From: a virus
Virus record (IMG/VR): IMGVR_UViG_3300029258_003011
Reading direction: 5' to 3' (one strand)
Length of the DNA stretch: 50,432 bases
In this document: positions 2,712 through 3,842 of the stretch, one piece after another
Position numbering within the stretch: the stretch's first letter is position 1
How the letters are laid out: every line of letters begins with the position of its first letter
Notes under the pieces: generated by a model
Seen by the model: only the letters and a program-made list of their open reading frames with translations
Databases searched by the model: none
Told to the model about the DNA's origin: nothing
Made by a program: the position numbers and the translations under genes

Positions 2712-3842
2712 TTACCCCTTCGCATTTATTATGGGTCTTATAAAATCGACCACGTCAATAACAATTCCTTCCTGCTTTGCTATAACCTGTGACAAATCTT
2801 TATAAGCATCAGGAGCTTCTTCCAGTATTGATTTATCCAATCTGCAAGTGATTCCCTGCATCTGCTTTTTCACTTCATCAAGTTTTATTGTTTCCTTTGC
2901 TTTGGTTCTTGAGTATTTTCTTCCTGCTCCATGAGAAGCAGAATTTAGATATTCTTCATTACCAAGACCTTTTGTGATATAAATTCCAGTTTTCATACTT
3001 CCTGGAACTACGCCCAATTGATCTTTTTCTGCTGGAGTTGCTCCCTTTCTATGAAGAACATCATTTCCAATAATTTCAACCGTATTATGATTTTCATGAA
3101 TCATATTCTCATCCATCAATCTCATGATTTCTTGAGGTTTAAATCCAATGACATGAAGAACATTATTCATCATAATACTTCTACTCATTTCAGCAAAGTT
3201 TCTTGCAAATATCAAATCATTTACATATTGCTGACCAACGTCTCCATGTAAATGTAAAAATCCTTTAGGTAGATCTTTATCTACACGTTTTGATATTTTC
3301 ATATAATACTGTGCTATCAACCAACCAGGTTTTCTTGAACCACTATGAACAGTTGCACAAAGATTTCCTTTTCTATTTGCCCCTATTTCAATAAAGTGAT
3401 TTCCACTTCCTAAAGTTCCTAATTGATTCAATTTTGATGATACTTCTTTACTTAACTCCTTATCTCCGGATGCTGATTTGAACTCTTCAAATCTTTTTGA
3501 AAACTTATTTCTTGCTTTTCCTACTCCACAAGGAATAACCTCAAAAATTCTATTGAAGATTTCTACTCTTTTTCTTTCATCTTTTATAATATCTGAGAAT
3601 GGAATTTCTGTAATTACACATATCATTCCGCAATCAATATCATAACCTACATATGGTGGAGATATCACATTATCAAGCAATGCAACTCCTCCAATTGGTA
3701 AAGAATAACCAGCATGGACATCTGGCATTATTGCAAGAGCTTTAAGAAAATCTAACCTTAAAGCGTCATACATTTGCTGTTGCGCTTTTTGTTCAATCTC
3801 TTCTATTGGAATCAATGTTCTCAATTTATCGAGTACGCTCAC
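2712..3842 (-). CDS. rtcB: RtcB-family RNA 3'-phosphate/5'-OH ligase
   Basis: RtcB signature motifs are present: 'MPDVHAGYSLPIGGV', 'GYDIDCGM', 'GSGNHFIEIG', 'HSGSRKPG' and 'NSASHGAGR' (GMP-attachment His). Confidence 0.85.
   Translation of the reverse strand: MSVLDKLRTLIPIEEIEQKAQQQMYDALRLDFLKALAIMPDVHAGYSLPIGGVALLDNVISPPYVGYDIDCGMICVITEIPFSDIIKDERKRVEIFNRIFEVIPCGVGKARNKFSKRFEEFKSASGDKELSKEVSSKLNQLGTLGSGNHFIEIGANRKGNLCATVHSGSRKPGWLIAQYYMKISKRVDKDLPKGFLHLHGDVGQQYVNDLIFARNFAEMSRSIMMNNVLHVIGFKPQEIMRLMDENMIHENHNTVEIIGNDVLHRKGATPAEKDQLGVVPGSMKTGIYITKGLGNEEYLNSASHGAGRKYSRTKAKETIKLDEVKKQMQGITCRLDKSILEEAPDAYKDLSQVIAKQEGIVIDVVDFIRPIINAKG

Follow-up and report, generated by a model that had tools for sequence, protein, structure and literature searches.

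The 50,432-nucleotide stretch of viral DNA analysed here at its full length (IMG/VR record IMGVR_UViG_3300029258_003011, hereafter the window) carries on its minus strand, at 2712..3842, a gene whose product is almost certainly the nucleic-acid ligase RtcB. On balance, we favour a role for this enzyme in the repair of RNA or transfer RNA (tRNA) cut by nucleases of the host. Judged from its sequence, the gene is genuine and intact and specifies a stand-alone, bacterial-type RtcB that is predicted to be an active ligase.

The Pfam family RtcB (PF01139) matches the 376-amino-acid product with an E-value of 1e-80 and 272.5 bits (cut-off 27) over profile positions 7-426 of 426, PHROG 1075, 'tRNA splicing ligase', matches it with an E-value of 7.6e-99, and the solved proteins that match it by sequence below an E-value of 0.001 are nine distinct RtcB sequences and nothing else. 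The initial annotation had called the gene from five motifs, all of which were found in the open reading frame; together with a PF01139 match far beyond chance, they bear out that call. Homologues align from residue 1, which corresponds to the GTG start at 3842, and the ribosome-binding site is strong, a perfect AAGGAGG by direct reading of the sequence. The features of the gene are as follows, with the equivalent residues of the Escherichia coli and Pyrococcus horikoshii enzymes.

2712..3842, minus strand: RtcB-family 3'-phosphate/5'-hydroxyl nucleic-acid ligase; uninterrupted open reading frame of 376 amino acids plus stop, GTG start
3848..3854, minus strand: Shine-Dalgarno sequence AAGGAGG, with a 5-nucleotide spacer to the GTG at 3842; overlaps the stop codon of the helicase gene
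3708..3725, minus strand: PDVHAG motif, residues 40-45
3624..3647, minus strand: GYDIDCGM motif, residues 66-73
3630..3641, minus strand: codons of Asp68 to Cys71 (DIDC), predicted metal ligands; E. coli Asp75/Cys78, P. horikoshii Asp95/Cys98
3387..3410, minus strand: GSGNHFIE motif, residues 145-152
3396..3401, minus strand: codons of Asn148-His149 (GNHF motif); E. coli Asn167/His168
3333..3347, minus strand: HSGSR motif, residues 166-170
3345..3347, minus strand: codon of His166 (HSGSR), predicted metal ligand; E. coli His185
3087..3089, minus strand: codon of His252, predicted metal ligand; E. coli His281
2919..2933, minus strand: HGAGR motif, residues 304-308
2931..2933, minus strand: codon of His304 (SHGAGR), predicted covalent guanylylation site; E. 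coli His337, P. horikoshii His404

Active site, fold and type of the ligase

We aligned 35 RtcB homologues with pairwise identities of 49-100% and a mean column identity of 60%, and found D41, H43, D68, C71, N148, H149, H166, R170, H252, H304, R308 and R312 to be invariant. In the same order, a MAFFT alignment gives D48, H50, D75, C78, N167, H168, H185, R189, H281, H337, R341 and R345 as their equivalents in E. coli RtcB (MG1655), and an HMMER alignment gives D65, H67, D95, C98, N202, H203, H234, H329 and H404 as equivalents in the P. horikoshii enzyme. Around H252 the pairwise BLAST alignment to E. coli RtcB is shifted by two residues, and the multiple alignment resolves the position. The Asp, the Cys and the three His of the two-metal site are thus all present (D68, C71, H149, H166 and H252), and the position of the nucleophilic histidine is filled by H304 in SHGAGR, which corresponds to E. 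coli H337 and P. horikoshii H404. That the aligned residues are the metal ligands and the histidine that carries guanosine monophosphate (GMP) is established for the family by the work of the Shuman, Söll and Raines groups, and the PDB titles 'RtcB-GMP/Mn(2+) complex' agree with this assignment. When this alignment and the E. coli mapping were checked for active-site substitutions, no catalytic residue was found to be replaced.

An AlphaFold2 model built on the homologue alignment has a mean predicted local distance difference test score of 93.8 and a predicted template modelling (TM) score of 0.91. Foldseek comparison of this model with the PDB gave 16 matches below an E-value of 0.001, all of them RtcB chains and none of another fold, with the next match at 0.08; the best was the P. 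horikoshii RtcB-GMP/Mn structure (4dwq; E-value 5e-32, TM score 0.83 normalised to the query). A non-functional remnant or an open reading frame arisen by chance is scarcely credible given the full-length family match, the invariant catalytic residues, the strong ribosome-binding site and the retention of the gene in every relative from the lineage that we examined.

A side observation concerns a calcineurin-like Metallophos_2 protein encoded at 11502..12149 of another phage locus, L169, which aligns with window positions 3114..3830 at 32 bits, 22% identity and 25% gaps. The alignment covers the N-terminal two-thirds of RtcB and brings the DxH, GNH and H metal-binding motifs together in the same order. 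We regard this likeness as a probable case of convergent motifs, since RtcB structures are all that the fold search yields.

Compared with E. coli RtcB (b3421), a bacterial ligase with known biochemistry, the phage protein is 33% identical over nearly the full length (E-value 2e-57; 376 versus 408 amino acids), and it resembles that enzyme in size, in all catalytic residues and in being a single-domain, stand-alone protein, found here in a window without archease. In E. coli, however, rtcB is flanked by the RtcA cyclase and the RtcR regulator, whereas the phage copy is encoded inside a replication and recombination block. An Rtc operon (rtcBA/rtcR) was accordingly rejected, as the neighbours are a helicase, a 95-amino-acid open reading frame and SbcD, with neither RtcA nor RtcR adjoining.

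The phage enzyme shares its fold (TM score 0.83, E-value about 1e-31) and the positions of the GMP-histidine and metal ligands with the P. horikoshii and human enzymes (4dwq and 8odo), but is about 100-130 residues shorter (376 versus 481-505 amino acids) and only 23-27% identical, and with the TM score normalised to the target its coverage is about 63-66%. Archease is a partner of both those enzymes, and the human one belongs to a multi-subunit complex as well. We rejected the archease-dependent long form (about 480-505 amino acids plus an archease gene) for a protein of this length, and Pfam scans of 38 open reading frames of the window, itself part of a genome, gave no match to archease. 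RtcB of the E. coli type is not known to need archease, and an archease partner is not expected here because the phage RtcB is of the bacterial type.

Among the NCBIfam models, the closest bacterial RtcB model, PRK09588, gave 157 bits, below its equivalog cut-off of 407, and the PrfH-coupled 'release_rtcB' model, TIGR03073, gave 127.9 bits, below its cut-off of 271.8. Like the RtcB of the RtcB2-PrfH ribosome rescue and repair pair, the phage protein belongs to the RtcB family in its short bacterial form, but with a score under the model cut-off, no prfH gene nearby and no release-factor-like neighbour in the window or its relatives, assignment to PrfH-coupled RtcB2 was rejected.

We assign the protein to a short RtcB subfamily that, by the comparisons that follow, is distinct and common to many uncultured large phages. 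In a search of 5.8 billion proteins, 7,997 of the 8,000 candidates scored were significant, the nearest relatives being unnamed metagenomic proteins of 371-380 amino acids with 55-78% identity. Single-protein queries of IMG/VR with RtcB or with the adjoining helicase returned no loci; an alignment-based scan succeeded and recovered 78 viral RtcB loci, many on contigs of 100-500 kb. Cellular relatives (45-51% identity; one genome per species) were found in Desulfuromonadales/Geobacteraceae, Desulfovibrionaceae, Aquificales, Deferribacterales and others, and these showed no conserved neighbouring gene.

Among 50,697 GenBank phage records, 710 carry an RtcB homologue detectable by tblastn, including 221 from Mycobacterium, 63 from Bacillus and 58 from Listeria phages, and most of these homologues are already annotated as 'RtcB-like RNA ligase' or 'tRNA splicing ligase'. 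A megablast search of window positions 1-12000 against the GenBank phages gave no match, and the phage is therefore without a close cultured relative. The RtcBs of cultured phages, which include mycobacteriophages of subcluster K1 (Adephagia gp84), Proteus phage Privateer and Microbacterium, Rhodococcus, Cronobacter and Salmonella phages, have the family, the length class and the proposed role against tRNA cleavage in common with the window copy. They differ from it in genomic setting and are at most 38% identical to it, whereas the subfamily of the window is almost exclusively metagenomic (55-78%) with the addition of cellular genomes (45-51%). RtcB in a phage is in itself not new, and the window adds one to the hundreds annotated.

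RtcB in the replication module of the lineage

The window is a single co-directional string of minus-strand genes with about 33% G+C. It encodes phage hallmark proteins (a baseplate hub, virion structural proteins, primase, clamp loader, a RecA/UvsX-like protein, RuvC and a FEN-like nuclease) as well as ribonucleotide reductase, both subunits of topoisomerase II and unsplit RNA polymerase β and β' subunits, and from this gene content its source is assigned to a phage. The genes around RtcB are the following.

3853..5256, minus strand: superfamily 2 (SF2), XPB/UvsW-like helicase, directly upstream of RtcB; matches ResIII (1.7e-21) and XPB/rad25 models
2419..2706, minus strand: Cys-rich open reading frame of 95 amino acids between RtcB and SbcD; no Pfam, PHROG or NCBIfam match
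1412..2416, minus strand: SbcD/Mre11-like metallophosphoesterase, downstream; matches PHROG 100 (E-value 4.7e-43), Metallophos and sbcd models

RtcB had initially been placed between an SbcD/Mre11 nuclease and an SF2 helicase; both neighbours are indeed there, and the helicase adjoins RtcB directly, but on the other side the 95-amino-acid reading frame intervenes before SbcD. The gaps from RtcB to its flanking genes are 2-10 nucleotides. No terminator-like sites were seen on the coding strand of positions 1..10000. A promoter and terminator scan of this region performed no better than on shuffled sequence (44 promoter-like sites versus 44.2 expected; one terminator-like site versus 4.0), so that the transcription unit is read from the tight gene spacing only. 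By that spacing, RtcB appears to be co-transcribed with the replication and recombination genes.

Closer relatives were recovered via the protein collection, with RtcB copies 78% (L165/L166), 64% (L167) and 62% (L168) identical to that of the window. They share the order topoisomerase II-B, x, topoisomerase II-A, pilin-like, QueD/PTPS, SF2 helicase, RtcB, (small open reading frame), SbcD-like, x, phosphoribosyltransferase, where x stands for an unnamed gene. The helicase adjoining RtcB in L167 and L168 is 76-88% identical to the window helicase, and in L168 the SbcD-like gene is followed, at a distance of 1.6 kb, by an SbcC-like one. The Cys-rich reading frame is present in L165 at 77% identity and absent from L167 and L168, where RtcB abuts SbcD. 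Because these relatives (L165-L168) keep the gene order, the helicase–RtcB–SbcD block is judged to be a stable feature of the lineage and part of its replication module.

Within the block, conservation is lower for RtcB than for the genes around it. The RtcB of L167 is 64% identical, whereas the helicase, SbcD and topoisomerase II-B are 88%, 85% and 91% identical; in L168, the corresponding values are 62% for RtcB versus 73-76% for the syntenic neighbours. The difference suggests faster evolution of RtcB or cassette exchange at a fixed site, and would be compatible with a gene that interacts with the host.

The conserved order raises another explanation, namely that RtcB acts with the UvsW/XPB-like helicase, SbcD(C), the kinase and the phosphoesterase described below to seal or cap 3'-phosphate/5'-hydroxyl breaks in phage DNA or in hybrids, where such breaks could stem from ribonucleotides embedded in the DNA or from DNases of the host whose products end in 3'-phosphates. 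We consider this unlikely. E. coli RtcB reportedly joins and caps 3'-phosphate ends of DNA, according to work from the Shuman laboratory, and the helicase–RtcB–SbcD order has been kept even though RtcB has diverged to 62% identity; vertical inheritance alone, however, explains a conserved order within one lineage, and all established roles of RtcB in vivo are on RNA. A partnership with a helicase has a parallel in human RTCB, which is described as complexed with the helicase DDX1 (PMC8668186).

Next to the helicase, on the same strand, lie a QueD/PTPS gene (5274..5687, minus strand; 1.3e-30) and then a type IV pilin-like gene with an N-terminal methylation motif (5697..6008, minus strand), both of which are conserved beside the helicase in L167. 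We saw no other genes of the 7-deazaguanine pathway in the window; a Q_salvage gene occurs in the relative L163.

RtcB loci in other phages and the predicted substrate

We compared 79 viral RtcB loci, i.e., the 78 from IMG/VR together with L001. Across them, a setting with SbcD and helicase is not the rule. Of the gene families of the window, just one recurs: an SF2 helicase of the same cluster was found close to RtcB in 12 of 74 viral loci, which would speak for joint action of helicase and ligase on DNA; these loci, however, reduce to about six related groups, and few phage genes are commoner than those for SF2 helicases. A tRNA or transfer-messenger RNA gene was found within 8 kb of RtcB in 23 of the 79 loci and within 2 kb in 17, and tRNA density near RtcB was 1.9 per 10 kb within 3 kb versus 1.0 per 10 kb at 4-8 kb.

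RtcBs that are 46-60% identical to the window copy are encoded inside or beside phage tRNA arrays, and some of them are accompanied by RNA ligases of the Rnl2 type or of PF09414 and by phosphoesterases. At L005/L169, an RtcB of 60% identity sits inside an array of 25 tRNA genes, with the Metallophos_2 gene directly after it and a T4 Rnl2-type ligase gene 4.7 kb away; by its gene content, this region is a compact tRNA and RNA-repair island. The locus (IMG/VR 3300025586_000006; JGI 3300025669 contig of 144 kb) is widely sampled, its RtcB being found in 62 collection blocks. A PF09414 RNA ligase gene abuts RtcB in six loci, and NAD-salvage genes lie near RtcB in six loci. Directly upstream of RtcB in L010 and L023 (7582..7932) is a NADAR gene whose product is 43% identical to the NADAR protein of the window. 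Taken at the level of the subfamily, the gene associations favour a role of RtcB on RNA or tRNA, and in these distant phages the subfamily adjoins tRNAs and RNA ligases and not the DNA repair genes that action on DNA breaks would call for.

From the established mechanism of RtcB, the phage enzyme with Mn2+ and GTP would become guanylylated on His304, would open the 2',3'-cyclic phosphate end of a cut RNA to a 3'-phosphate and would pass the GMP to that end, giving RNA(3')pp(5')G. The 5'-hydroxyl of the other fragment would then attack to form a normal 3'-5' phosphodiester, with no separate end-healing step. During infection, RtcB would probably in this way reseal the 2',3'-cyclic-phosphate/5'-hydroxyl halves made by metal-independent ribonucleases of the host, most likely at the anticodon loops of tRNAs, although ribosomal RNA (rRNA) or messenger RNA may also be substrates, and such resealing would keep translation running. 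A role in countering anticodon nucleases is plausible and fits the associations seen at the family level.

Several observations weigh against this interpretation. The 50-kb window contains no tRNA gene detected by ARAGORN and no Rfam-recognised RNA at the gathering threshold, and about 100 kb of sequence from the closest relatives likewise contained no tRNA. RtcB is here fixed in a block for DNA replication and recombination, not in an RNA-repair or tRNA island. The enrichment of tRNA genes near viral RtcB is modest, about 1.8-fold, and is carried by a minority of non-independent loci. Moreover, the window points to no particular substrate or nuclease, and an experimental test of phage RtcB as a counter-defence was not found in the searchable literature.

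The idea itself dates from 2011, when phage RtcB was proposed to repair tRNA cleaved by the host (Pope et al.; PMC3203893), and Iyer et al. (2021) ascribed to the RtcB and ATP-grasp ligases of jumbo phages the repair of tRNAs that RNase effectors have cleaved (PMC7824862). Over-expression of Adephagia rtcB (gp84) was inhibitory in Mycobacterium smegmatis, with nothing further reported on its role (PMC11373665). The tRNA-repair hypothesis for phage RtcB is thus 15 years old, and the value of the window copy is that of one data point. If a phage RtcB did defeat defences that cut tRNA, such as PrrC, RloC, PARIS or Septu, this would constitute a useful general mechanism of counter-defence.

The proven precedent for such repair is the Pnkp and Rnl1 pair with which phage T4 counters PrrC. 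The purpose predicted for the window RtcB is the same, in that tRNA cut to 2',3'-cyclic-phosphate/5'-hydroxyl halves would be restored, and a Pnk-like kinase is likewise encoded in the window, with T4 Pnk as its closest match among solved structures. The routes differ, however: RtcB would seal directly with GTP, whereas the T4 enzymes heal the ends to 3'-hydroxyl and 5'-phosphate before ATP-dependent sealing, the window kinase is without the phosphatase half, and no Rnl-type ligase was found by tblastn of the window.

Two further RNA substrates were considered in place of host-cut tRNA. Repair of rRNA, in the manner of RtcB2 with PrfH or by reversing 16S cuts of the MazF or colicin E3 type, would restore ribosomes; the chemistry would be identical, the features of the window do not discriminate between RNA substrates, and bacterial RtcB paralogues repair rRNA (PMC9304027). 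We nevertheless hold this to be improbable, as the TIGR03073 score (127.9 versus 271.8 bits) is well short of the cut-off, Pfam scans of the window reading frames and the gene lists of the relatives contain no PrfH-like gene, and the associations seen in other phages are with tRNA genes. Processing of the phage's own RNAs, or a part in host takeover, for instance by joining the exon halves of split or intron-containing RNAs or by circularising RNAs, is suggested by the family name, RtcB being the tRNA-splicing ligase of archaea and animals. There is, however, no tRNA gene, Rfam intron or RNA family in the window, nor a splicing-endonuclease gene among the scanned reading frames. Since bacterial hosts are also not known to have an endonuclease-dependent splicing pathway, we consider such a role very unlikely. 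Repair of RNA or tRNA after cleavage by host nucleases thus remains the role that we favour.

Kinase, phosphoesterase and other genes of the window

Two further enzymes of nucleic-acid ends are encoded in the window.

40772..41269, minus strand: polynucleotide-kinase-like P-loop kinase, stand-alone, kinase half only; matches AAA_33 (2.2e-19)
43032..43439, minus strand: LigD-type 3'-phosphoesterase, stand-alone; matches LigD_N (2.5e-14) and PDB entries 3p43 and 3p4h (about 1e-12)

Both had been listed in the initial annotation as separate genes, and the Pfam, PDB and PHROG matches agree with it. The best solved relatives of the kinase are T4 Pnk (1ly1; 2e-7) and also bacterial Pnkp1, and it matches PHROG 505 'polynucleotide kinase' (1e-22) over positions 1-144 of 295. 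In the phosphoesterase, an alignment of 29 homologues shows no variation at His12, His20, Asp22, Arg24 and His58, which match the His, His, Asp, Arg and His residues in solved stand-alone phosphoesterases; at another position it has Glu where those enzymes have Tyr. Both proteins retain their catalytic residues and look active.

The phosphoesterase has 113 metagenomic homologues (49-81% identity); it matched no PHROG family, and tblastn at an E-value of 1e-3 or below found no match in the 50,697 GenBank phage records. In this phage, the stand-alone LigD phosphoesterase is a less common item than RtcB. Its gene lies between RuvC and ribonucleotide reductase in L161 and L162 (81% identity) and in L163 (62%), and in the first two of these the kinase gene comes after that of ribonucleotide reductase, which is not the case in L163. 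L162 and L165, from sample JGI 3300009149, and L161 and L166, from ENA ERZ27249621, appear to be fragments of a sister phage. From these positions, the kinase and phosphoesterase are taken to be lineage-stable parts of the replication module.

These enzymes, together with RtcB, had been read as more than one route of end healing, for which support is weak: the kinase and the phosphoesterase are present with their catalytic residues, but the ligase for 5'-phosphate/3'-hydroxyl ends that would partner them was not found. A heal-then-seal route is doubtful because it needs such a ligase and none was detected in the window. The scanned reading frames gave no match to a family of this kind, several larger ones having been read by eye only, and tblastn of the window with the Rnl2-type and PF09414 ligases of related loci gave a best E-value of 0.02, no DNA-ligase query having been run. 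As the window is a partial genome, a ligase could lie outside it.

For the kinase, there is no Pnkp phosphatase domain of the HAD or Metallophos type, and the LigD-type phosphoesterase, within the replication block, is the candidate 3'-end healer. For this enzyme, action on DNA ends is no less probable than action on RNA ends, as its gene sits in the conserved RuvC–phosphoesterase–ribonucleotide reductase replication block. The same conserved block would also suit the action of RtcB on DNA breaks that was considered above. Indeed, three enzymes for 'dirty' 3'-phosphate/5'-hydroxyl ends, i.e., RtcB, the Pnk-like kinase and the LigD-type phosphoesterase, occupy fixed positions in the replication module, and it is conceivable, though we would give it little weight, that they cooperate with the UvsW/XPB-like helicase and SbcCD as a toolkit for repairing the ends of DNA, or of ribonucleotides in DNA. 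In that case, RtcB would seal or cap 3'-phosphate ends of DNA in vivo, and no system is known in which this is an established physiological task of the enzyme.

Several other genes of the window deserve mention. The RNA polymerase subunits, beta at 20438..24529 (1363 amino acids) and beta' at 24548..27553 (1001 amino acids), both on the minus strand, are full-length and unsplit. The best match of beta' in a cultured phage, Rhizobium phage RHph_Y65, is only 27% identical, which places the window in an uncultured lineage of large phages. The NADAR-domain protein mentioned above is encoded at 12671..13123 on the minus strand (Pfam 1.4e-28; PHROG 1017) and is a candidate for an enzyme with which the phage counters ADP-ribosylation of DNA as a defence; orphan antitoxin-like enzymes acting against DarTG1 have been described (PMC11825919).

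An overlapping gene pair at 9828..11141 and 11122..12354, minus strand, specifies products that match PHROG 1314 and PHROG 1297 ('ATPase'), respectively. The homologue of the former in a relative matches Pfam DUF2201, and the label of PHROG 1314, 'HNH endonuclease', looks like a misnomer. Finally, an 849-amino-acid protein encoded at 14304..16853 on the minus strand, which has no PHROG match, contains the shoulder and repeat domains of the major vault protein (MVP_shoulder 5.3e-20), an unusual composition for a phage protein.

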